This document shows positions 1,728-15,362 of a DNA stretch of 37,157 nt, one piece after another. The stretch's first letter is position 1. Every line of letters starts with the position of its first letter. The stretch is from a virus. Lineage: Duplodnaviria > Caudoviricetes. The notes beneath the pieces are model-generated. The model was not told the DNA's origin. It searched no databases and worked only from the letters and a program-made list of their open reading frames with translations. The stretch spans positions 1 through 37,157 of the IMG/VR virus record IMGVR_UViG_3300033417_000033. One strand, written 5' to 3'. The translations under genes were made by a program, and so were the position numbers.

Positions 1728-2366
1728 ATGATAATAAGTCCGGACAATGCGGTAGTAGGGATGGCGGCGGCGAAGGGGAATGATAGCGCGTTTGAATTGC
1801 GTGCGGTTAAAGTAGATCCGGCGGAGAGTATGATCTATGGGAGTAATGGGCATTGTTTGTATTGGTCGAGGTTGGAGCATACAGATGATGAGTTCCCGGA
1901 TTGTGCGATTGCCGGCGCGGTGGCGAGTAAAGAGTGTGTGCTGATTCCGGCGGATAAATTAGAGAAGGCGTTTGCTAGTGTGGCATCGAAAAGTGTTATG
2001 CTGATATTGCAGTGCGTTCAGGTGTTGACGGATGAGACGCATCATCATCTGGTGACAACGGATTGCGATACCGTGCAGGATATGAAGGTGAAGCACTGTG
2101 AGTATGGGGATTGGCCAGCCGTTAAGCAGATACGGCAGGCGGTGGAGGTCGAGCGCGAGAAGGGTCATACGGGGGTGGTGGGAATCTCCCTTGAGGAGTT
2201 AGAGCGCTTGGTCAAGATGACGAAGAAGCTGAGCAAGGGGGAGAAGATGGCGGTGGTTGAATTGGAAATAAATATGATTGATATGGAGCAGAATCCGATC
2301 GGTGTCAAGCTGAGACATCGGGATGATTTCGGGGGGCTGATTATGCCTTGTCTGGTGGGGGGTTGA
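1728..2366 (+). CDS. DNA polymerase III beta-clamp-like protein (partial clamp fold)
   Basis: 'GSNGHCLY' resembles clamp ATDGHRL; 'YGDWPAV' resembles G.YP; C-terminal 'GLIMP' resembles YVLMP. Confidence 0.55.
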   Translation: MIISPDNAVVGMAAAKGNDSAFELRAVKVDPAESMIYGSNGHCLYWSRLEHTDDEFPDCAIAGAVASKECVLIPADKLEKAFASVASKSVMLILQCVQVLTDETHHHLVTTDCDTVQDMKVKHCEYGDWPAVKQIRQAVEVEREKGHTGVVGISLEELERLVKMTKKLSKGEKMAVVELEINMIDMEQNPIGVKLRHRDDFGGLIMPCLVGG

Positions 2367-2857
2367 TGGTAATGTCAAGTGTGATACCATTTGAGCGGTA
2401 TAGTGATGTACCGATACTGACGGATCTGGATACATTGTTGACGGGTGGGGAGAGTTGGCCGATTATTGGGGATCTGCTTACGGCGGCGGATTGTCGGCAG
2501 GTGGTGGCGCGTTTCACGAGTCTGTCCCGGTATGGTGATTGCTTCGAAAAAGCGAGGATTGCTCAGGACTGTTTGCGGTGGGCGGACTTTATGCTGGTAG
2601 CCGGCGAAATGCGCGTAGTCAGTGCGGACGGCGCAGGTTGCTACGGATTTGACTTCAATCCACCAGTGGAGTGTCATTGTTGGCTGACGGATCAGAAGGG
2701 GAGGGTGATTGACTTTGCGCTCCCTGGTGTAATTGAGACAGGTCTGAAGACATGTGACCAGGTGGGGCCGATATTAGTTGGGAGGGTGCCGGCGGTGCTT
2801 GCCGGAATTACACCAAGTTGGCTACGATATGGGGTAAAAGTGAGGTTAGCGCGGTGA
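2365..2857 (+). CDS. hypothetical protein (start uncertain)
   Basis: Long ORF in the coding direction. The ORF track starts at 2348; an ATG near 2365-2374 is more likely. Confidence 0.6.
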
Positions 2858-2958
2858 GTTGATATGGTGAGTAGTAGTAGGTGACGGTCGGGTAAACTGG
2901 CTCTAGGTGGGTGATTTCATTGTTAAATAATTTTTCTTATTTGGATGAAATAAAAAGG

Positions 2959-2988
2959 TTGACTGTTTTTTGATAGAAATGTTAGAAT
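2959..2988 (+). promoter_or_regulatory. sigma70-type promoter
   Basis: TTGACT-18 bp-TAGAAT with extended -10 TG, in an AT-rich intergenic region ahead of the replication operon. Confidence 0.65.
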
Positions 2989-3027
2989 TGTTTCACTTGT
3001 TTAGCTTTGTGGATGATTATTACTTAG

Positions 3028-3243
3028 ATGGGAGGTGAGATAGAGCAGATGGCAGATAGAGAGCAGAAAATACAATGGAGCACAAGAGGGATGTTGGTGA
3101 GGCATCATACGTTGATGCGGCGGCTCGCGGCAGACAAAAGAACGACGATGGAAGAGGTACACAATCGGGCGCTTGAGATTGGGCTGGGGGTGATTGAGCG
3201 GGAGGTATTTGAGCAATTGGTGAGTGAGGAGGTGGGGGGATGA
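3028..3243 (+). CDS. small DNA-binding protein, ribbon-helix-helix-like (start may be ATG 3049)
   Basis: 'HTLMRRLAADKRTTMEEVHNRALEIGL' fits an RHH helix pattern. First gene after the promoter. Confidence 0.55.
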   Translation: MGGEIEQMADREQKIQWSTRGMLVRHHTLMRRLAADKRTTMEEVHNRALEIGLGVIEREVFEQLVSEEVGG

Positions 3244-4187
3244 TTCAGGTAGATAATACACTATTATGTGATGTCGCCAAATGTGACGCCGCCGGGATTG
3301 CTCGTCATGTCTTGCACCTACGCGGCACCGGCGAGAAGGTCGCGGCGGATATCGGGAACTGCTTCCATGCGGGACTGGAGCAGCATTTCAGGGGTGCCGG
3401 TAAAGAGCAGGTGCTGGTAGCATTCCGGGCCGAGCATGCGAAGTTATTCCCGGCGCAACTCCAACCGGAAGAGGATCGCTTCACGCTGGAAAACTGCCTA
3501 CGCATAATGGGCCGATATTGTGACACGAGGCCCGTCGAGCGATTCCCGTTTGTGCCGGTTTCATTTGAGCAGACGGTCGGTTTTCCACTCGCGGAGGACA
3601 TAACGTTCTATGTGAAAAGGGACTTGCTCGTGCAGGATAAGGTCAGCGGCTTGAGTGCGCCCCTGGATCATAAAACGACACGTACAATCAGCGAGTGGTG
3701 GTCCGGGAAGTATCGGATGACGAGTCAGATGAGCGGCTACGTGTGGGCCGGCCAACAGGAAACGGGCCAGCCGATGGGGGAGTGCTATGTGAATGCTCTG
3801 GAGGTGATGAAGGTGCCCAATAGCACGAGAAAGTGCACGACGCATAAGGTGCCCTATGCGGAATGCGGAATTGAACATGTTAAGTTTGAGTTGCTTGTAT
3901 ATGCTCGAAGCCCGGAGATGATCGCACGGTGGAAGGAGGATGCGATTTTGTTGGCCGGGCAATTCGCTCTCCTGCAGAAAGCATTTCCATCGGTGGAATA
4001 TCTTCCGTATGCAAGACGAAATGGGGCATTCAATGACGGGTGTACATTTTGCGAGTTCAAGAAGTGGTGTGCGGTTGGGTTCGATGCTGGGATGGTGAGT
4101 GGGCTGGTAGAGTATGAGCGGTGGGAACCGTGGGCGGTTGGGCAAGGGCAGGATGGGCCGGTGCCGGCAGGCGAATTGCCCTACTGA
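3240..4187 (+). CDS. PD-(D/E)XK exonuclease, Cas4/RecB-like
   Basis: 'GNCFHAGLE', 'RDLL...DHKTT', 'QMSGYVW', and C-terminal 'CTFCEFKKWC' with an N-terminal Cys (possible Fe-S). Confidence 0.85.
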   Translation: MIQVDNTLLCDVAKCDAAGIARHVLHLRGTGEKVAADIGNCFHAGLEQHFRGAGKEQVLVAFRAEHAKLFPAQLQPEEDRFTLENCLRIMGRYCDTRPVERFPFVPVSFEQTVGFPLAEDITFYVKRDLLVQDKVSGLSAPLDHKTTRTISEWWSGKYRMTSQMSGYVWAGQQETGQPMGECYVNALEVMKVPNSTRKCTTHKVPYAECGIEHVKFELLVYARSPEMIARWKEDAILLAGQFALLQKAFPSVEYLPYARRNGAFNDGCTFCEFKKWCAVGFDAGMVSGLVEYERWEPWAVGQGQDGPVPAGELPY

Positions 4188-4297
4188 TACAAGCAGCTGG
4201 TGCCGGGTAGCGCCGGGTGGATGGATTATTGGCGGGCGTGGCCGAGCAGGCAGGGGGAGATGTTGGAGTGGCGAAATCAAATAGGGGGTAAGCTGAA

Positions 4298-4465
4298 ATG
4301 TGGGAAGTAAGAGAGGATGTGGTGAAAGACCGCAAGGGGAATGCTTTGGTTATCTTTTGGCGTATTGAAACGTCAAGCAATAAAAGAAATTTCACGTCAT
4401 TATCTGAACAAGATGCCAGGTGGTTAGTTGAGGTATTGAATGTTCACAATGATAAAGGGAAATAG
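4298..4465 (+). CDS. hypothetical protein (55 aa)
   Basis: Read manually: MWEVREDVVKDRKG...NDKGK*, G-rich RBS upstream. Confidence 0.5.
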   Translation: MWEVREDVVKDRKGNALVIFWRIETSSNKRNFTSLSEQDARWLVEVLNVHNDKGK

Positions 4466-4472
4466 GTGAGTT

Positions 4473-4718
4473 ATGATCCGTTTGATTTTAAAATGTAAAA
4501 GTTGTGGGGAGGAATTGGAGAAAAGCATGCCAGCAATAAATAGCACAAGTGACATGGTGTTGATTGTGAAGGTGTGTGAGAGGTGTGAGATTTCGCAGGA
4601 TGCTTATGAGGAGGTGATGGGGGAGTTGCAGGATTTGCAGCAGCTACTGGCAGAGAAAGAGCAACGGATCGCCGATCTGGAAGCTAAAATTGAACTAGAA
4701 CTAGGAGGTGTCGCGTGA
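4473..4718 (+). CDS. hypothetical Zn-binding/coiled-coil protein
   Basis: CxxC...CxxC followed by a heptad-repeat helix. Confidence 0.65.
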   Translation: MIRLILKCKSCGEELEKSMPAINSTSDMVLIVKVCERCEISQDAYEEVMGELQDLQQLLAEKEQRIADLEAKIELELGGVA

Positions 4719-5500
4719 CAGAGCAGACAGGACAAATAGCAGCAAATAGACCACCTCTTCACCTATTGTTGATGGGTGAGTCAGGATCTGGAAAGGATAC
4801 CTTCGCCGCAACCTGGCCAAAGCCGATGCTGGTTTGGCACCTGGACGGGTATGGGCAAGAGATGCCTTATATGAAGGGGGCCACTAGTGTCAGCGAGATC
4901 CAACAGTATCAGCTCGGTAATAGTGGCTTGATGATTCCGTATCGGGATATTGTGCGGCCGGACGGATTCGTGCGGATTGAGTATTATAGTAGTGATAACC
5001 CGGAGATGCCGAATGCTGTTGCGATGCTGACGGCAAGGATGTCGTATTTTGCAGGTGAGGTCAGTCAGTGGAAGACGCTTGCAGTCGGGAGCCTGAGCAG
5101 TATTTCGTTGGAAGCCCGCCTATATGAGCAATTTGTGCTGAATCCGCAATATAAGGACCCGCGAAAGTGGTTTGGGGCAGCGGCGGACATGCTGGAGCGG
5201 TTGATCGCCTTGCAGAAGGGCTTTCCAATTAATGTCGTCATGATGTGTCATGTGGCGCGGCAGATGGATGAGGTGGATGGTACGATGCTGTATACGCCTG
5301 ATCTGCCTGGGCGATTATCATACGGTGCGGCAAGGTATTTCAATGAAATGTATCGTATGTATGTTGCACGGTTGCCGGACGGGAAAACACAACGGGCTCT
5401 ACAGACGGATAATGATGGGAAATATCAAGCGAAGACGCATATTGATGCTCCAAGCCCTTGTTGGCCAACTTATGATTCATTATGGGTAAATTGGCGGTAG
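4715..5500 (+). CDS. Sak4-like/AAA_24 phage P-loop NTP-binding protein
   Basis: 'LLMGESGSGKDT', 'VVMMCHV', 'PDLPG', 'AKT'. Lies between the nuclease and SSB genes. Confidence 0.75.
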   Translation: MTEQTGQIAANRPPLHLLLMGESGSGKDTFAATWPKPMLVWHLDGYGQEMPYMKGATSVSEIQQYQLGNSGLMIPYRDIVRPDGFVRIEYYSSDNPEMPNAVAMLTARMSYFAGEVSQWKTLAVGSLSSISLEARLYEQFVLNPQYKDPRKWFGAAADMLERLIALQKGFPINVVMMCHVARQMDEVDGTMLYTPDLPGRLSYGAARYFNEMYRMYVARLPDGKTQRALQTDNDGKYQAKTHIDAPSPCWPTYDSLWVNWR

Positions 5501-5562
5501 GAGCTTTTGTTGGAGTTGAAACCGGGCGATTGTGTGTTAAAAATTAAAAGGAGGATGCTAAA

Positions 5563-5664
5563 ATGCGGGAACAGGCAAAAAATTTTGCAATAGCAGCATT
5601 GATTTTACTGATTGCGTGGGCAATATCCTTTATGGCTATTATAACAGCTTTTCCGCCTCCTTGA
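5563..5664 (+). CDS. small membrane peptide (33 aa)
   Basis: AAGGAGG RBS; MREQAKNFAIAALILLIAWAISFMAIITAFPPP*. Confidence 0.55.
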   Translation: MREQAKNFAIAALILLIAWAISFMAIITAFPPP

Positions 5665-5769
5665 TTGTAGATTGGTTCTGCGCTTTGATTGTGATTGTAA
5701 ACTGGTTGTAGCGGGGTAAGACGGGCAATAGTGCCTATTTAACAACAAACGGAGGGGTGGGAGTGTGCT

Positions 5770-5958
5770 ATGTTTATAGAAGTTGTGTGTATTGGGTCGG
5801 ATGATGTTTTAAGGCGGACTTTTATTAATGTGAATAAGATTGAAGCAATAGCGGAAAAGAACGGTGTTACTTTTTTAGGTACAAGTGATGGCATGTTCAA
5901 GGTCACAGACACCGTAGATGATGTCATGAAAAAAATTAACGCGGCAATTGCCGTATAA
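5770..5958 (+). CDS. small FlbD-like hypothetical protein
   Basis: 'FINVNKIEAI...F.VTDTVDDVMKKI' pattern. Confidence 0.5.
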   Translation: MFIEVVCIGSDDVLRRTFINVNKIEAIAEKNGVTFLGTSDGMFKVTDTVDDVMKKINAAIAV

Positions 5959-5987
5959 TCAACCAAAAACAGAAGGAGATTAAAAAA

Positions 5988-6734
5988 ATGCAGAACCAGA
6001 ATTATTTCCCATGGGAAGAAACAAAAGAGGACAATGTATTTCCGACGATGATCGGTCAATTCAAGGTGAAGTCGATTGAGGATGGGCAGTCGAACAATAC
6101 CGGTAAGCGGATGTTCAAGGCGATTTTCGAGTGCGTTGGTCCGGTTGAATTGCAGGGGATGTCTCATTTTGAGAATTACGTGGTCGGAAGTGATGAGCAG
6201 CCGCTGGCGATTGTTGCCGGGGCGATGGGCACCCGCTCGTTTAAAAAGCTTTGCAAGGCAAGCCAGGTACCGCCGAATAATGATATCGTTGTGCTGCTCG
6301 CAAGCTTGGAGAATTCAGATTTGTTGCTGTCGATTGTTGAGTATACTGAGACACAGGAAGGACAGTATAAGGGGACGAAGCGGAATCGGGTAACCGGATA
6401 TTTCAGAGTTGGGGAGAGGCAGATCGGGATTGCGCCTGCGGCAGGTCAGCCAGGGCAGACAAGTGGTCCGGCGATGGCAGGGCAGGCCGCTATGGCACCG
6501 CCTCCGCAGAATGCCCCACCGACACAGCCCGCGCAACCAATGCAGGCACCGCCTGCCCAGCCGACGGCACCACCAACACAACAGCAGCCCGCTCCGATGG
6601 CGCCGCCAGATCAGCAGGCACAGGTCGGCCCGATGCTCCGTTGCACGATCTGTAATCAGGATGTGAGTGCTATGGCCTTCGGGATGCACGTGGCCAGGCA
6701 TCAAAGTGAGCCGGGGTGGAATGGGATCGGTTAA
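5988..6734 (+). CDS. single-stranded DNA-binding protein (DUF669-like) with Pro/Gln linker and C-terminal C2H2-like motif
   Basis: OB-like N-domain ending 'YKGTKRNRVTGY', low-complexity PAQP linker, 'CTIC..HVARH'. AGGAG RBS. Confidence 0.65.
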   Translation: MQNQNYFPWEETKEDNVFPTMIGQFKVKSIEDGQSNNTGKRMFKAIFECVGPVELQGMSHFENYVVGSDEQPLAIVAGAMGTRSFKKLCKASQVPPNNDIVVLLASLENSDLLLSIVEYTETQEGQYKGTKRNRVTGYFRVGERQIGIAPAAGQPGQTSGPAMAGQAAMAPPPQNAPPTQPAQPMQAPPAQPTAPPTQQQPAPMAPPDQQAQVGPMLRCTICNQDVSAMAFGMHVARHQSEPGWNGIG

Positions 6735-6806
6735 TGCTTGCCGGAAAGTGTCTCACTTAAGAGTCGATACTTTCTGACGACAGGGCCGCGACTGTAACGC
6801 GGGATC

Positions 6807-6953
6807 AGAACGGTGGCGGAATTGGTAGACGCACTGCTGGAAAGCTATTCGAAAGATGTTGCAAATATAGCAGATTGACGGTGGAAACAAGCCCTTTTAA
6901 GGATGTCTTACAAGCCCGAAAGCCCAATGTAGGTTCGAATCCTGCCCGTTTTG
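6807..6953 (+). ncRNA. tRNA-like RNA with expanded anticodon/variable region (no assignable anticodon)
   Basis: Acceptor stem AGAACGG/CCGTTTT, Leu/Ser-type D-arm TGGCGGAATTGGTAGACGC, T-arm GTAGG-TTCGAAT-CCTGC, with about 95 nt between D and T arms. Confidence 0.7.
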
Positions 6954-8236: not shown

Positions 8237-8523
8237 AAGGAAACGCAAGCTGTCATCTTCCGAATGATCGTTATCGGGAGGGGTGGGAGAGGGTTTTTGG
8301 GGCGAAGAAGTGTTTGAAGTGTGGGAAGGATTGTTCGACGGATTCTGACTCGCTTAATCACAAATACACCGGCGAGTGTGAAACTTGCTGGAACTCTCGC
8401 TGCATTAACTGCTTGAGTGATATGTTTGAAGAGGATGGTACGTGTAAAGGGTGTGGGATTAATCTTAAAAGGTATCGGGATATTGTGACTACTGCGATTG
8501 ATGAACATAAGGTTAAAAAATGA
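8233..8523 (+). CDS. Cys-rich (Zn-ribbon) hypothetical protein
   Basis: Four CxxC motifs; ATGA overlap with polA. Confidence 0.65.
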   Translation: MKGNASCHLPNDRYREGWERVFGAKKCLKCGKDCSTDSDSLNHKYTGECETCWNSRCINCLSDMFEEDGTCKGCGINLKRYRDIVTTAIDEHKVKK

Positions 8524-10418
8524 ACGCAGCAGCCGCATACGCCAGCCGAACACTCGGACGCTTCGTCCCAGATGAAGGGCCACTTGATGCACCTATACTC
8601 GTAATCGGTGATGTACCGTGGACACAAGAGGCGAATCTGGGCAGGCCGTTCGCCGGGCAGGCAGGTAAACAGCAGGATATCTGGTGGCGGGAGGTCGGAC
8701 TTGAGCGTAGCAAGATGCGCCTGATCAATCTCTATCCGTATCAGCCCGCCCGGAATGATGTAGAGAGTGTTCCAATCGGCGAGTTGGTGCCTTGGATCTC
8801 AAAATTGCATGAGCGGATTGCGGAAATGCCCGGGCTACGTGTAATCGTCACGCTTGGCAACTACGCTACGTTTGCACTCACCGGCAAAGGACAGGTAAAG
8901 GCAGCGGTCAGGCAGGTTTTCTCACCCGGTGAAGCAACGGTGATCGAGAAGAAGGCGGGCATCTCAAAATTGCGAGGATCTGTTTACCGGTATCGGGATC
9001 TCCGCGGGAGAGAGATAATCGTAGTGCCGATCACGCACCCATCGACAGTAATGTGCATGCAGAAGTGGGAGAAGCGCACAGTTCGGGATTGGCAGCGGGT
9101 GGCGCGGATACTGCGAGTTGGCCAGGTGCCGATTGAGCGCCGTCATATCGTAAGTCCCGATGAGTGGCAGGTAGCGGACTTCGCGAGGATGGTGGAAGCG
9201 AATGCAGGGGATATCGCTATGGCCACGGACATTGAAACGTGGGGCAGTCAGCTATCATGTGTCGGATTTGCACTCTCGCCTACTGAGTCGATTACAATTC
9301 CGCTTATTGGCCGGGCAAAAGATGTGATGATGCCGTATGTGAAAAGGCTATGTGAGTCGGCAGCCCCTAAGATATTATGTAATGGAATGTATGATGCCTA
9401 TTGGCTGGCCTGGTACGGAATATGGCTGGCGAATTTCACCTGGGACGTGCAACTGATGCACCATGCGATTGATCCGGCGGAGTCGCACAGCTTGGACTTT
9501 CTCGCCTCGATCTATTGCGACGACTACCGTTATTGGAAAGACGAAGGCAAAGATGGCGAGGAGGTGATCCGCTATAGTGATGAACTTGAAGCTCTATGGG
9601 TATATAACGGCCTGGATTGTTGTTATACGAGAGAGTTGCTCGATTGCATTTATGGAGATTTGTATCAGCAGGGGTTGGTGGATTTCTACTTCCGGCATTA
9701 TCAGGCGCTGCTTGATCCGCTGCTTAGAACAAGCCTGCACGGATTCCGGGTGGATAAGAAGGCGCAGAAAAGTTGGGCGAAACAACTTCGGGGGGAGCTT
9801 GAGGAGATACATGGGCAGCTTGTTGCAGCGGCAGGGGAGGAGTTGTTCGCGGAAGAGGAGAGGTGCGCATTAAGGGAGCCGACTACTGCCGAGTGGCAGT
9901 GCTTACTGGTGCCGGATATGAATGGGAAGTTGCCGGGTGTTGAGGTAGCGAATCCTCCGATAGCGAAACAGATAAGTAAGGAGGGGAGGGCAGCTCTGAT
10001 GACAAGCGGCCTCACGTATATGATAGGTGGGCAGAATGCTGGGAAGATTCGTTTCAAAGTGCGCTCGACCAAAAAGGATTTCAGCAAGGATAAGTTGATA
10101 CGGTTTTTCTATGAGACGCTCGGTCTTCCAAAGCAATTCAAGCTGTCGAAGGGGGTAGGCGGGAAAAAGCGCACTGTCTCACTGGATGAGGGTTCGATTC
10201 GTAAAATGACCGCAAAATGGCCGGATAAGATTGGCAATTGGGGGAATTTGCTATTGGCGTATCGAGAGAAGAAGAAGGAGCTTGACTACCTGAAAGGGTC
10301 GTATGACGGGGATGGGCGGATTCGTTGTAGCTATAAGATGTTGACTGAGGCGGGGCGGCTTTCGAGTAGTACGAATCCGCGTAGGACTGGTTACAATTTA
10401 CAAAACATAAAACGTTGA
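8520..10418 (+). CDS. polA: family A DNA polymerase, N-terminal part: UDG-like domain, 3'-5' exonuclease, thumb
   Basis: UDG motifs 'VIGDVPW..E...GRPFAGQAG' and 'THPS'. Exo I 'TDIET', Exo II 'NGMYD', Exo III 'YNGLD'. Ends 'GRLSSS..P....NLQNIKR*' before polymerase motif A. Confidence 0.9.
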   Translation: MNAAAAYASRTLGRFVPDEGPLDAPILVIGDVPWTQEANLGRPFAGQAGKQQDIWWREVGLERSKMRLINLYPYQPARNDVESVPIGELVPWISKLHERIAEMPGLRVIVTLGNYATFALTGKGQVKAAVRQVFSPGEATVIEKKAGISKLRGSVYRYRDLRGREIIVVPITHPSTVMCMQKWEKRTVRDWQRVARILRVGQVPIERRHIVSPDEWQVADFARMVEANAGDIAMATDIETWGSQLSCVGFALSPTESITIPLIGRAKDVMMPYVKRLCESAAPKILCNGMYDAYWLAWYGIWLANFTWDVQLMHHAIDPAESHSLDFLASIYCDDYRYWKDEGKDGEEVIRYSDELEALWVYNGLDCCYTRELLDCIYGDLYQQGLVDFYFRHYQALLDPLLRTSLHGFRVDKKAQKSWAKQLRGELEEIHGQLVAAAGEELFAEEERCALREPTTAEWQCLLVPDMNGKLPGVEVANPPIAKQISKEGRAALMTSGLTYMIGGQNAGKIRFKVRSTKKDFSKDKLIRFFYETLGLPKQFKLSKGVGGKKRTVSLDEGSIRKMTAKWPDKIGNWGNLLLAYREKKKELDYLKGSYDGDGRIRCSYKMLTEAGRLSSSTNPRRTGYNLQNIKR

Positions 10419-10433
10419 AATCATTAGATAAAA

Positions 10434-11165
10434 ATGCAATACCCCACCCAAATACTTATACCTGAGTTGATCCCGCGCAGTAGCTGGTTTTCGAACTTGC
10501 GCTCTCTCCTCTCGCAAGAGCAATGGGACATCATTCGAAAAGACAGCTACCGTGCGGCAGGCTACCGCTGTGAAATCTGCTGTGGGAAGGGGGAAAAGTG
10601 GCCTGTCGAATGCCACGAGCGGTGGGCGTTTGATGACGCGACGGGCATCCAATATCTGGAGGGGGTAATCGCGCTGTGTCCAATGTGCCATAAGGTGAAG
10701 CATATCGGGCTGGCTGAGACGAGGGGGGAGGGGACAGCGGCAATTGCTTGGATGGCTCGGGTGAATGGTTGGCCTTCTGAGGTGGCGAAGGCTGCGAGAG
10801 ATGGGGCATTTGTGCAGTGGGAAGAGCGCTCGCGGAGGAAGTGGCAGATTGATTATAGTCGAGCACCCTTTGTGATCCAGCAACTTGTGCGGGCGGTGGT
10901 GGATAGTACGCGGCAGCCTGCGCTTAAGGTACCGCCTGTGCCGGTGTCGAAAAGTAAACAATTGTTGCGAAAGATGCAGGCAGAGCGGATAAAGCAAAAG
11001 CAAGCAGATGACGGGCGACGTGAACTTGAAATGATCGAGCGATTGAGGATTACGAAGCAGACGGAAGCAACCGAAAGAATAGCTTATGATTCTGCGAAGT
11101 TCAAAACAAAAAAGTATTTGAGCAAAAACAAGCAAAAGCACCGATTCGCCAAATTCGCAAATTAA
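10434..11165 (+). CDS. HNH endonuclease
   Basis: 'ELIPRSSWFSNLRS', 'RCEIC', 'ECHERW', 'LCPMCHKVKH'; basic C-terminal extension. Confidence 0.8.
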   Translation: MQYPTQILIPELIPRSSWFSNLRSLLSQEQWDIIRKDSYRAAGYRCEICCGKGEKWPVECHERWAFDDATGIQYLEGVIALCPMCHKVKHIGLAETRGEGTAAIAWMARVNGWPSEVAKAARDGAFVQWEERSRRKWQIDYSRAPFVIQQLVRAVVDSTRQPALKVPPVPVSKSKQLLRKMQAERIKQKQADDGRRELEMIERLRITKQTEATERIAYDSAKFKTKKYLSKNKQKHRFAKFAN

Positions 11166-11201: not shown

Positions 11202-11292
11202 GTGTAACGACAAGGGTGAGCAGACCGGGCCACCTAAACATGAATAAAAAAATCAGGCGGTTCCCCGGTTCTGCTCTACCCGCTTGTTATGT
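11202..11292 (-). other. attC-like recombination site 1 (91 bp)
   Basis: Minus strand: ACATAAC-AAGCG-GGT[A]GAGC-AG[A]ACCGGG...CCCGGTCT-GCTCACC-CTTGTC-GTTACAC. Matches R''-5-L''...L'-6-R' with two unpaired bases. Confidence 0.85.
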
Positions 11293-11644
11293 GCTTTTGC
11301 ACGGAGGTCATTTATGGGAATTGATTATGATGGTGGGATGATTGTTGGTGAAATAGGCAGCAGATTGGGCTCTGTCGATGCTCCTGATGGACTGTCGGAA
11401 TGGGCAGAAGATAACGACATGAAAACCATGGCGATGCACTATGATGCTGATTCTGATTGGTGCTATTACGGATTTGAGGTGCCTAATGTCCTTGTCAGCG
11501 AGATAGACCAGGCGTGGCTTGATAATCTAAGAGCCAAAGCGGCCAAATTTGAAGAATTGACAAAAATCCCGGCTAAACTGGTTGGGACGCAAAACATTTG
11601 GTAGCACATAACGACAAGGGTGAGCAGACCGGGCCACCTAAACA
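11205..11644 (+). repeat. 36-bp perfect direct repeat (11205-11240 and 11609-11644); the second copy is an attC half-site
   Basis: TAACGACAAGGGTGAGCAGACCGGGCCACCTAAACA occurs twice. Confidence 0.95.
11314..11604 (+). CDS. cassette ORF, hypothetical protein
   Basis: GGAGG at 11303 and ATG at 11314; the stop abuts GCACATAAC. Confidence 0.8.
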   Translation: MGIDYDGGMIVGEIGSRLGSVDAPDGLSEWAEDNDMKTMAMHYDADSDWCYYGFEVPNVLVSEIDQAWLDNLRAKAAKFEELTKIPAKLVGTQNIW

Positions 11645-11656
11645 CAGGAGGTTGGT

Positions 11657-12007
11657 TTGGCGACATATAGATACCCGATTGTTCCAATAGACGATGACCT
11701 GCAACAGCTTGATATGGATGACATTAACAGCTTTGGAAAAGGTGAGGTCTGCCAGTATTTGAATGAAGTGCTTGAACACTACGGACCTCCTTGTGAGTTT
11801 TGTCGTCATTTCGATATGTTTTGCGAGCTAAAAATCAGGAACATAAAATACGATCTACGGATTGGGCCTTACGAGTCATGGCACATCAGAAAGTTTTGCG
11901 AAAAACACGAGGGCATAGATAACAGTGAGCAGCAGGACGAAGAGCGGTCGCGGATGCTGCGGAACCAATTAAACTGCGATGCTCAGACATACGGTTCAGG
12001 CTCATAG
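11657..12007 (+). CDS. cassette ORF, Cys-containing hypothetical protein
   Basis: AGGAGG at 11646, TTG start; 'CEFCRHF..FC'. Confidence 0.65.
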   Translation: MATYRYPIVPIDDDLQQLDMDDINSFGKGEVCQYLNEVLEHYGPPCEFCRHFDMFCELKIRNIKYDLRIGPYESWHIRKFCEKHEGIDNSEQQDEERSRMLRNQLNCDAQTYGSGS

Positions 12008-12011
12008 AGCA

Positions 12012-12087
12012 ATACAACGGCTGAATTAACCGGCGCGCGTTAGCGCGTCCGAGCGAGGAACGAGCGATGTTGAATGATTTGTTAGCT
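12012..12087 (-). other. attC-like recombination site (76 bp)
   Basis: Minus strand: AGCTAAC-AAATC-ATT[C]AAC...GG[A]CGCGC-TAAC-GCGCGCC-GGTTAAT-TCAGCC-GTTGTAT, with an extra insert of about 17 nt in one arm. Confidence 0.8.
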
Positions 12088-12279
12088 ACCGAGTGCCCGG
12101 AATGTGGCAGCACTGATACGGAATGGCACTGCACACAAACGACACGCAGCGGAGTTGTGGACGGTCGCCTGAGGCTGAACGAAGTAACCACGCTGTTTTT
12201 CTGTGGCTGCAATGAGTGCTCCGAAACCATTAAAACGGTGAGCGGTGACGAGCTGGCCGCAATAATGACAGGCAGCTAA
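12067..12279 (+). CDS. cassette ORF, Zn-ribbon hypothetical protein
   Basis: 'CPECGS...CNECSET'. The start lies inside the attC and the TAA stop lies inside AGCTAAC. Confidence 0.75.
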   Translation: MLNDLLATECPECGSTDTEWHCTQTTRSGVVDGRLRLNEVTTLFFCGCNECSETIKTVSGDELAAIMTGS

Positions 12280-12360
12280 CGCCGTTTTAACCAGCCGCGC
12301 CACAATGCGGCTATGAAAACCGGAACCGTTCGCGCGGTCTGGTTGAAAAATTTGTTATGT
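12274..12360 (-). other. attC-like recombination site (87 bp)
   Basis: Minus strand: ACATAAC-AAATT-TTT[C]AACC-AG[A]CCGCGC...GCGCGGCT-GGTTAAA-ACGGC-GTTAGCT. Both unpaired bases have the canonical position and identity. Confidence 0.88.
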
Positions 12361-12368
12361 GATTTTTT

Positions 12369-12716
12369 ATGATTACACAAATTGCTGACCACATGGCCCT
12401 GGTATGTCGCTGCGGCTGTGTCGGCTTTAATCTCCTCCGGTCAGTGCGTATAGAGTGCGAGGGCTGCGGGGAACAAAAAAACATGAGGTGGACAATGAAA
12501 ACGCTTGAAGGTTTGTTGAGAATGACGGTGCCCGCGAAAGACAAAGACGGCAATGATATCCAGATTACCCCGGAATTTCGGTTGTCTGTGCAGGAGACAA
12601 AAGCGATGGTCAACGGTGAGCCTGGAGTGAGAATTATCATCCACGCCGATGGCTATAATAGCGACACCCTGGATTATGTTGTTTCTGGCGATGAACTTTT
12701 GTCCTTAAACATATAA
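12369..12716 (+). CDS. cassette ORF, hypothetical (internal RBS + ATG near 12495 suggests two fused modules)
   Basis: N-terminal CxCGC...CxxC, then GAGGTGG-aca-ATG. Stop lies inside ATATAAC. Confidence 0.7.
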   Translation: MITQIADHMALVCRCGCVGFNLLRSVRIECEGCGEQKNMRWTMKTLEGLLRMTVPAKDKDGNDIQITPEFRLSVQETKAMVNGEPGVRIIIHADGYNSDTLDYVVSGDELLSLNI

Positions 12717-12863
12717 CGATGAAGCTCACCTGAACGACTATTGGTGGAAAAAGTTCGAAGCGGCCATGAAAGACACATAACATAGCAATATACGGCTGGC
12801 CACCGGGCTTGCCGAAACCACGCGGACGTTGTCCTGTCCGTTTAACTGGAGGATAGGTGATTT

Positions 12864-13058
12864 ATGAAAATAATAATCGTAGATAACTTTGATAGAGAGT
12901 CTTCTTCAGATACTCTTGTGGCAGAAAATATTAATAAATACTGGGGAGAAAAAGTCGTGGATTTTCTGAATAATAAATTCTCAGGTGATGACTCCCCTAG
13001 CTACTTCAAACTGGTTGAAGACGGTCACAAGCTATACATTTTTGAGCCTTACACTTGA
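12864..13058 (+). CDS. hypothetical phage protein
   Basis: GGAGG/AGGT RBS, 64 aa, AT-rich. Confidence 0.75.
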   Translation: MKIIIVDNFDRESSSDTLVAENINKYWGEKVVDFLNNKFSGDDSPSYFKLVEDGHKLYIFEPYT

Positions 13059-13064
13059 ACAACG

Positions 13065-13130
13065 GTGTTCGGCGGCCCAACGACTACTATTGAACGTATT
13101 AAAGCGGGTAAAACATGGCAACACATTTAA
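13065..13130 (+). pseudogene. C-terminal remnant of an HNH homing-endonuclease-type HTH
   Basis: Translates VFGGPTTTIERIKAGKTWQHI*, like the FGVS..TI..IK.GKTW.HI ends of phage HNH proteins. Overlaps the start of polA part 2. Confidence 0.55.
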
Positions 13131-13981
13131 AGAGTATTCGTGAGACGTTTTTACCCGATGAGGGGTGCGTATTCGTCCGGTGTGATCTTCAGCAAGCAGA
13201 GCACAGAATGGGCTTGATGTATTGCGGGACTCCGCGTATGCTTACCCATGTCAATACGAATGGCGCAGATTATGATTGCTTCACTGAGGAGATTGAGCCG
13301 ATTTTTGGCATAAATCCGCGTGCTGTGGATAAGGCGAAATTTAAGCAGATGCGCTACCTTACGAAGAAGATATTCCATGCGAGCTGGCGTTCAATGGCGG
13401 GGAATAAGATGTCCGAGTCGGTCAGTAAGGACACAGAAGGGCAGCTATTCATTAGCGCGAAGGAATGCCAACGCCTTATTGACACCTACTTGAAGAAGAA
13501 CCCAGAAATCACACAGATCTACATGCCGATGGTGCGGGAGCGGATTCGCTCAGTAGGGGTGCTAGAGACGAGCTGGGGTAGGCGGATTGACCTGAGAAGG
13601 CGTCGAATTGACGATGACCTTTATCGGATCGGGTATAGCTTTTACCTTCAGGCAGAAGTGGCCGATTGGACGAATCAATACGGCCTCATACCTGCTACCT
13701 ATTATATGCTCGGCAAGTACGAAAAACCTTGCAATGCTCAGGTGCATGATGAGATAATCGTGAGTGTGCCGATTGCGGATTCCTTTGACTATGCCATCTT
13801 CATCACCCTGGCCATGCAGCAGAGGCGGGAGATTCCAGCGGGGTCTGGGAATTGGCTGACGATTCCAGCCGGGGTGACAGTGGGGCGAAATTGGGGAGAT
13901 CCGAAGGGGGTGGAGTTTAAAAGGATGCCATCGAGGGATGAGTTCTATAATCAATTAAGAAAGGGGGGATTCAAATGCTGA
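13115..13981 (+). CDS. polA: family A DNA polymerase, C-terminal catalytic part
   Basis: 'IRETFLP', motif A 'DLQQAEHR', motif B 'RYLTKKIFHASW', 'TSWGRR', 'LQAEVAD', motif C 'QVHDEII'. Confidence 0.92.
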   Translation: MATHLKSIRETFLPDEGCVFVRCDLQQAEHRMGLMYCGTPRMLTHVNTNGADYDCFTEEIEPIFGINPRAVDKAKFKQMRYLTKKIFHASWRSMAGNKMSESVSKDTEGQLFISAKECQRLIDTYLKKNPEITQIYMPMVRERIRSVGVLETSWGRRIDLRRRRIDDDLYRIGYSFYLQAEVADWTNQYGLIPATYYMLGKYEKPCNAQVHDEIIVSVPIADSFDYAIFITLAMQQRREIPAGSGNWLTIPAGVTVGRNWGDPKGVEFKRMPSRDEFYNQLRKGGFKC

Positions 13982-14265: not shown

Positions 14266-14580
14266 ATGAGCGCCACTAAAAGATATGATATAAAAAAAGC
14301 CCTATCTCGTTTCACCCCGGAAGAACAAGGCTCCCTTCAGGCGATGGCGACTATGAGAGTCGAGCATGGTGTGATGCAAAAGCAGCTCGCGGAGTTGAAG
14401 GGGGCGTATGACTCGCTATATGCTGTGATGGTGACACTGCTCGATGCGATGCCGGATAAAGAGATCCGACTCCATGCGAGTCAGCTGCTCAGGTTCAAGG
14501 CGGAATATCGAGTGGATCAGAAGAGGGAAGGGGAAGAATTTGTACTTCGGTTGCTTACTTTGAACGATGAGGTGGGGTAG
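14266..14580 (+). CDS. hypothetical protein
   Basis: ATG at 14266 after GGAGG; helical. Confidence 0.7.
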   Translation: MSATKRYDIKKALSRFTPEEQGSLQAMATMRVEHGVMQKQLAELKGAYDSLYAVMVTLLDAMPDKEIRLHASQLLRFKAEYRVDQKREGEEFVLRLLTLNDEVG

Positions 14581-15362
14581 TGATAGCTCGTCAGAGTTTT
14601 AGCCCGGTATTACTTCAAGGAGATTGCCTAGAGCTGATGAAGTATATTGAAAGTGACTCAGTAGACATGATACTGACTGACCCGCCCTACGGAACCACGG
14701 CCTGCAAATGGGATTCGGTTATCCCGCTTGAACCAATGTGGGAACAACTGAAGAGGATCATTAAGCCGAACGGGGCCATTGTAATGACGGCCAGCCAGCC
14801 GTTTACCTCGGTGCTAGTGTGCAGCAACTTGCCCATGTTCAAATACTCGTGGGTATGGAAAAAGACAAGACCCGGAGGCTTTGTGTCGGCAAAGCTAAAA
14901 CCGCTGAAAGATGTAGAGGATGTGTGCGTCTTTTCTGAGGGGGCAACGGCAAACGGAAGCAAAAGAAACATGCCCTACTACCCACAAGGGGTTAAGCAAG
15001 GAATACCGTGGAAGCGCCCAAAGAAATATGCAGGGAGCGAAGGGGTAAGTTACACCAGGGAATCGCACGCGCTTGAGAGAACGACCACCGGCTCAAACTA
15101 CCCCAGGGAGATTATAGAGTTTGCAAACCCCAACTCCGATGTGTTGCACCCGACACAAAAACCCGTAGCCTTGATGGAATACCTAATTAAGACTTACACC
15201 AATCAGGGAGACACGGTGCTTGATTTTACAATGGGCAGCGGCACAACCGGAGTAGCTTGCAGGAACCTGGGCCGGAACTTCATTGGCATTGAGCTCGATG
15301 AGCAATATTTTCAAATAGCAACTAAACGCCTACTAACAATCAACGATGAGATAGGAAGATGA
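14580..15362 (+). CDS. DNA N6-adenine/N4-cytosine methyltransferase (beta class), orphan
   Basis: 'GDCLELM', 'TDPPYG', 'HPTQKP', 'LDFTMGSGTTG'. Confidence 0.95.
   Translation: MIARQSFSPVLLQGDCLELMKYIESDSVDMILTDPPYGTTACKWDSVIPLEPMWEQLKRIIKPNGAIVMTASQPFTSVLVCSNLPMFKYSWVWKKTRPGGFVSAKLKPLKDVEDVCVFSEGATANGSKRNMPYYPQGVKQGIPWKRPKKYAGSEGVSYTRESHALERTTTGSNYPREIIEFANPNSDVLHPTQKPVALMEYLIKTYTNQGDTVLDFTMGSGTTGVACRNLGRNFIGIELDEQYFQIATKRLLTINDEIGR

Follow-up and report, generated by a model that had tools for sequence, protein, structure and literature searches.

A decaying, integrase-less cluster of predicted attC sites with reversed phage-gene cassettes between the two polA genes of a phage

The locus between the two polA genes

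The DNA analysed here (the window) is the whole of virus record IMGVR_UViG_3300033417_000033, a linear sequence of 37,157 nt estimated to be 73% complete. By a Pfam scan, the portal and capsid genes of the window are encoded on its minus strand and the replication module on its plus strand. The features of the region between and around the two polA genes are as follows.

8520–10418, plus: polA N-terminal gene (UDG, 3'-5' exonuclease and N part of the polymerase; PF03167, PF01612, phrog_17)
10434–11165, plus: free-standing HNH endonuclease gene, not a cassette (phrog_5200, E 9.5e-49)
11202–11292, minus: predicted attC site 1, complete; crossover AA|C at 11207/11208
11208–11611: cassette 1, 404 bp, attC1 then c1
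11314–11604, plus: c1, 96 aa, function unassigned, 34 homologues
11606–11644, minus: half-site, L'-R' arm only
11657–12007, plus: c2, 116 aa; own attC reduced to a half-site
12012–12087, minus: predicted attC site 2, complete; crossover 12017/12018; contains the c3 start codon
12018–12279: c3 cassette, 262 bp, attC2 then c3
12067–12279, plus: c3, 70 aa, Cys-rich, likely zinc-ribbon; N-terminus read from attC2
12274–12360, minus: predicted attC site 3, complete; crossover 12279/12280
12280–12780 (501 bp) or 12280–12716 (437 bp): c4 cassette, attC3 then c4
12369–12716, plus: c4, 115 aa; an inner start at 12495 gives 73 aa
12711–12734, minus: half-site, L'-R' arm
12774–12848, minus: degenerate site
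12864–13058, plus: c5, 64-aa phage protein (phrog_21874, E 2e-14)
13054–13080: 27-nt stretch, in some samples duplicated around an extra 435 nt (a 462-nt unit, present or absent)
13115–13981, plus: polA C-terminal gene with motifs A, B and C (PF00476)

A second record (G001) is identical to the window over the 12,864 nt compared and reaches 9.26 kb further left, the two together covering ~46 kb, and contigs from several sequencing runs follow the same path as the window. An assembly chimera at 11.2/13.1 kb, which the first-pass annotation had named as one way in which its reading could fail, is thus not supported. Near-identical DNA is carried by soil and sediment metagenomes, with at least half of the sampled words present in 9 of the 24 runs listed; among these runs no RNA run with near-identical sequence was found.

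The array had been described as nested between the halves of polA. Its position was confirmed; the split itself, however, is found throughout the family. The N-terminal gene ends right after the NLQN motif, as it does in 18 relative loci (some of them redundant), and the C-terminal gene, which has 52 relatives of 158–504 aa, aligns to Taq polymerase starting just before motif A. Fused polA was seen in two loci (L034 and L035). The gaps between the two genes measure 252–4892 nt in the relatives and are filled with differing, unrelated small genes. In the closest relatives (~80% identical) the gap contains no attC; its genes are that of the HNH endonuclease and two others, and the HNH gene is likewise present without attC in L018, L019, L021 and L024. 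The attC covariance model described below matched none of 23 relative loci and none of six whole relative records, with all five controls positive, and the grammar scan of the relatives gave one lone match, in the gap of L006. Since the split is common to the family and the relatives are without the array, the split and the insertion hotspot are older than the array, which came later and in this lineage only. The earlier suggestion was that the phage keeps a gene-shuffling locus; the same counts speak against such a device being conserved in the phage family.

Similar splits have been published. According to the available parts of the respective papers, polA is carried in two genes with a small ORF between them in phages MEP401/MEP402, which have split family A polymerases (PMC10580990), and in two genes in clade B T7-like cyanophages (PMC12695635). 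In comparison with these phages, the gap studied here is a variable hotspot of 0.25–4.9 kb, with attC cassettes in this lineage only. In four relative loci (L025 5400–5590, L030 400–645, L033 570–790 and L041 1660–1870), the first codons of the C-terminal polA gene recur in the ORFs inserted in the gap, either within them or at their beginning, which suggests insertion with duplication of the start of that gene; these inserts are without attC.

Two minor features lie outside the array. A gene for an N6/N4 DNA methyltransferase (14580–15362) is situated between conserved genes, with no match in the relative loci and no adjoining attC. At 6807–6953 there is a weak 147-nt Rfam tRNA match of 31.3 bits, for which ARAGORN gave no confirmation.

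Sites, cassettes and cargo

All three hairpins show the R''-spacer-L'' ... L'-spacer-R' layout with an extra-helical base beside L'' on the minus strand, and their L arms pair at 7/7, 6/7 and 7/7 positions in sites 1 to 3, respectively. We scanned the 37,157 nt with a strict grammar (R''-5 nt-L'' with one extra base ... L'-5/6 nt-R'), a looser form of which recovers the aadA1 attC of plasmid R100 as a control, and found exactly three sites, all on the minus strand. Among 1000 Markov shuffles of the 2-kb region none contained three or more such sites and three contained two. A covariance model, which we built from 72 bacterial sites with exclusion of the family used as the search pattern (that of site 2), gave 19.4, 33.0 and 32.8 bits for sites 1 to 3, again on the minus strand, the next match in the window being at 9.2 bits. 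Site 1 is the lowest of the three; experimentally validated attC sites of phage TJE1 score 24.9–29 bits with the same model. In the integrated form, folding in comparison to shuffled sequences gave z of -4.2, -0.1 and -2.05 for sites 1, 2 and 3, meaning that site 2 folds no better than shuffled sequence and that the fold support for site 3 is weak; the reconstituted circle junctions fold into long hairpins. Judged by the grammar scan and the covariance model, the three hairpins are genuine attC sites, as the first-pass annotation had claimed.

The coordinates of the sites had been given correctly in that annotation, but not their strand: a plus-strand reading was rejected, as the grammar scan and the covariance model both place the sites on the minus strand. 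The strand used by IntI is set by the extra-helical bases, according to the available part of PMC5027507. The extra-helical base and the spacer lengths assign the attC top strand to the minus strand; the predicted crossover of a site is therefore its left-hand AA|C, so that a site goes with the gene to its right. All the genes are on the plus strand, opposite to attC, so a cassette here consists of a site and then a gene. This layout is reversed with respect to a canonical cassette, in which the gene lies on the attC top strand and ends at the site; here the genes start at the site, on the opposite strand.

Site 2 is nearly letter for letter the same as a bacterial attC family found in 46 loci (e.g. 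L057, L069 and L070). IntI was found within 6 kb in six of these 46 loci, the enzymes being 45–58% identical to IntI1, and near-identical relatives of site 2 adjoin intI in Proteobacteria. A 34-nt part of the site was matched in one Methylobacter plasmid; the array had no long match among the annotated phages or plasmids searched. The family of site 1 also occurs in the viral loci L053 and L054. The pattern scan for relatives of site 3 gave a single, unrelated match, and that for the 12711 half-site gave only the identical contig. Given this near identity with integron sites, together with the positions of the extra-helical bases and the matched cassette ends, there is scarcely any likelihood that the hairpins are RNA elements, i.e. 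terminators or processing sites, even though on an mRNA they would fold between the genes; nor is there an excess of terminators. We give the same negligible weight to the intron and chimera readings of the region. Phage polA genes with group I introns are known (cited in the available part of PMC10580990), but Rfam gave no attC-like or intron match at E up to 1, and the gaps of the relatives vary in length and hold unrelated content; the chimera is contradicted by the second assembly and the contigs described above.

The ends of a circular cassette had been expected to be complementary. This was the case for cassette 1, whose ends at 11286/11610 match over 10 contiguous bp with a repeat spacing of 404, and for the c3 cassette (12081/12278, 7 bp). 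The pair proposed for attC3, 12354/12711, contains a mismatch and has 5 contiguous bp; the best partner of attC3 is instead the core of the degenerate site, at 12774–12781, with an 8-bp match. No matching end pair was found for c2 and c5.

The half-site following c1 includes an exact 36-nt copy (11609–11644) of 11205–11240, and part of the degenerate site (12799–12848) is found also in another context. We ranked 997 GTT positions with a half-site profile, the training set of which included relatives of sites 1 and 2: position 12717 came third, 11612 fourth and 12781 eighteenth. The proposed half-sites at 11923 (rank 173/997) and 13063 (rank 415/997) had no support from the profile. Thus, support is good for two of the half-sites, weak for one and absent for the other two. 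At its left edge the array has a bare GTT core, set in phage spacer DNA. The array, as indicated by its half-sites, is decaying.

The array had been reported to separate five small ORFs; because a second ribosome-binding site and start codon are present at 12495 within 12369–12716, the number is five or six, and the 73-aa part of c4 has 84 matches. The c3 gene lacks a start codon of its own, since its ATG sits in site 2, within the same cassette. Its homologues (n=23) have a constant core and variable termini, and four of them share the initial residues MLNDLL. The stop codons of c3 and c4 fall within the core, those of c1 and c5 just ahead of it. Homologues of c1 were found in ten other viral loci, two of them as partial matches, and in none of the ten are they flanked by attC; c1 is therefore a finished cassette here and an ordinary gene in the other ten. 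A 39-nt part of c1 was matched in 15 Vibrio phage records. Two PHROG families match c5, and an 18-kb contig whose downstream flank differs contains a copy of it with 88% identity. No PHROG match was obtained for c2 and c4, no family match for c2, and no tblastn match for c2–c5 in the fetched loci. The cargo had been likened to phage early genes rather than host genes, and the homologues of c1 and c5 bear out that it is of phage type.

Reversed arrays in phages and possible sources of integrase

With three predicted attC sites in 1.2 kb and no intI found in the ~46 kb searched, the cluster is placed in the CALIN class. It does not make a complete integron: no intI was found, no attI was recognised and there is no promoter excess. 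The first-pass annotation had stated that no tyrosine recombinase is encoded in the window, and we found none there or in the ~46 kb covered together with G001. PF00589 also had no match in four complete relatives; on this evidence the phage probably does not integrate, with a few kb of its genome lying beyond the sequence searched. For serine recombinases the search was confined to the Pfam scan, which covered 43 ORFs of the window.

The first-pass annotation had attC arrays as mainly described in bacterial chromosomes and plasmids; attC clusters of virulent phages have already been described and shown to recombine with IntI1 (PMC9892861). Phage TJE1 (Qi 2023, PMC9892861) resembles the phage studied here in having several attC sites between small genes, similar scores of these sites with our covariance model and no integrase; its genes are canonical, whereas here they are reversed, and here the array lies between split polA genes and includes half-sites. 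A second published CALIN, in MW202573 (L242, 2069–3738), has minus-strand attC and plus-strand annotated genes, and is thus reversed by our own check; the available text of PMC9892861 does not mention the reversal.

We surveyed gene orientation in viral and bacterial arrays, both surveys being seeded with one attC family. The pattern scan of viral contigs gave at least 121 loci; flanks were fetched for 80, and with three further loci 124 were examined. Among the matches listed there were 29 non-redundant viral arrays of at least two sites, of which 26 were reversed, two canonical and one a tie. The 46 bacterial loci contained 28 qualifying arrays, 22 of them canonical and six reversed, four of the latter by a margin of one or two votes. 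Reversed arrays are thus commoner in viruses (26/29 among the matches listed) than in bacteria (6/28; Fisher p 7e-8), with the orientation score being a crude ORF heuristic that scored TJE1 as a tie although its annotated genes are canonical. The reversed layout is the rule in the surveyed phage arrays and not in bacteria. We found no published description of reversed cassettes as a phage rule in a library that was thin in subscription journals and did not contain bioRxiv supplements.

Several loci of the survey deserve mention on their own. Two arrays from a single bacterial bin, assigned to Saccharibacteria, are strongly reversed (L080 and L093), and their contigs may belong to phages; PHROGs matched only 2 of 15 ORFs, and both arrays were left in the bacterial count. 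L054, which shares the site-1 family, is a reversed array (1841–4956) in a 39-kb phage record that is 100% complete, and two of its genes, judged by eye, resemble DNA methyltransferases. An apparently canonical gene adjoins a small reversed cassette in L050 (2467–2950) and L051; the terminal inverted repeat of this cassette measures 12 bp.

The viral contig G052 (L251, 82–6778) carries 12 minus-strand attC sites with plus-strand genes, and its cassette ends match at 7/7 positions in 10 of 11 cases. It also encodes a full IntI (4569–5591; 476 bits, 59% identical to IntI1), which is followed at 5600–6778 by a second recombinase-like gene. On these features G052 is a phage-borne integron with backwards cassettes. 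It was the only one of 50 attC-bearing viral records, most of which are fragments, with IntI above the cut-off; none was seen in five others. A host IntI is just as possible a source as that of a temperate phage, because IntI1 recombines phage attC (PMC9892861) and, according to the available part of bioRxiv 10.1101/2022.09.11.507474, inserts cassettes at GWT sites.

Origin of the cluster and present-day variation

We regard it as probable that the locus is a decaying, integrase-less attC cluster of reversed phage-gene cassettes, assembled by an IntI that came from outside, be it from the host or from a temperate phage, and then placed in the polA hotspot. IntI binds the folded bottom strand of attC and cuts at AA|C. 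Here the bottom strand would be the plus (coding) strand, and IntI would move a circle made of the site and then the gene. The hotspot between the two polA genes may later have received the cluster, or the cluster may have grown there. The genes would be read from the rightward replication operon of the phage and would not need an integron promoter, and a site could supply a start codon (c3) as the stop of a gene could form the core (c3 and c4). Loss of a hairpin arm by slippage or phage recombination would then fix the cassette in place. Folding of attC is favoured on the lagging-strand template (available part of PMC8946536); if replication runs with transcription, the lagging template would be the bottom strand, which would then recombine more readily.

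Known integrons of Beta- and Gammaproteobacteria, both chromosomal and class 1 (aadA1 attC; L057, L067, L069 and L070), share with the cluster the anatomy of the sites, the site-2 family and an end complementarity of at least 7 bp; unlike them, the present cluster has no intI, attI or Pc that we could find, the gene follows the site and the cargo is of phage type. One could propose that ordinary bacterial integron cassettes were transduced as cargo, considering the near identity of site 2 to a bacterial attC and the canonical arrays that do occur in phages (TJE1). We consider this very unlikely: the genes are reversed and thus out of reach of an integron promoter, homologues of c1 and c5 are found in phages, and in bacteria most arrays of this site family are canonical. 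SALINs, formed by cassettes inserted at attG, are similar to the cluster in their bare GTT left edge and in the attC arm loss by slippage proposed for them; they differ from it, as far as the available part of bioRxiv 10.1101/2022.09.11.507474 describes them, in having canonical cassettes, a location in bacterial chromosomes and no strand bias of insertion.

Integron cassettes are usually described as bacterial, promoterless units with the gene ahead of its attC. A more speculative proposal, which we hold to be rather unlikely, is that phages run an integron system of their own with backwards cassettes, in which IntI recombines an attC landing upstream of an ordinary phage gene with the TAA-C stop of that gene and so makes a cassette, and the IntI of temperate phages serves non-integrating phages in trans. 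A gene end of the TAA-C form would offer a core on the needed strand, and excision between an upstream attC and the stop could make a new cassette. Off-site excisions have been reported for attG insertions (available part of bioRxiv 10.1101/2022.09.11.507474). If true, this would be a direct, testable route to how cassettes are made, and a pool of backwards phage cassettes common to unrelated phages would be a site-specific route for exchanging small accessory genes, beside homologous and illegitimate recombination. As for the present locus, it is small and in decay, and no function is known for its cargo.

The probable origin given above and the main competing explanation differ in present activity only. 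The latter, to which we assign an appreciable though minority chance, is that the block is a fossil, taken whole from the integron of another phage by illegitimate recombination and changing only via short-repeat recombination or slippage, never by IntI in this phage. The two or more half-sites and the exact 36-nt repeat are in line with it, as are the inserts of L025, L030, L033 and L041, which duplicate the start of the C-terminal polA gene without attC. However, three sites retain the extra-helical base, the spacers and matched ends.

Present-day variation at the locus also bears on this point. In runs X3 (record 15) and X4 (record 30), one contig has the extra 435 nt between two copies of 13054–13080; run X2 contains both the short and the long path, and run X6 the window form and a second path entering at the same place. 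In X2, X4 and X6 the differences between the second copy and the window extend to ~13070, which puts the breakpoint in 13071–13080, off the AAC at 13061–13063; X3 lists no differences and cannot place it. Thus, in three of four runs the sole difference in content that was seen lies away from the AAC crossover, which is in agreement with the fossil and lends no support to the gene shuffling envisaged in the first-pass annotation. The 462-nt polymorphism looks like repeat-mediated recombination rather than IntI cutting, and the locus seems to change at present at least partly via short repeats. The depth of cassette 1 is about that of its flanks in X2–X5 (it is not listed for X1 and X6), a value uninformative on circles or loss as the 36-nt repeat collapses contig paths. 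The phage also encodes, at 3240–5500, a PD-(D/E)XK nuclease and an AAA_24 ATPase, which we take to be a Sak4-type recombination module; it is likely a module of phage recombination that could act on the repeats of the array, as the fossil explanation would have it.
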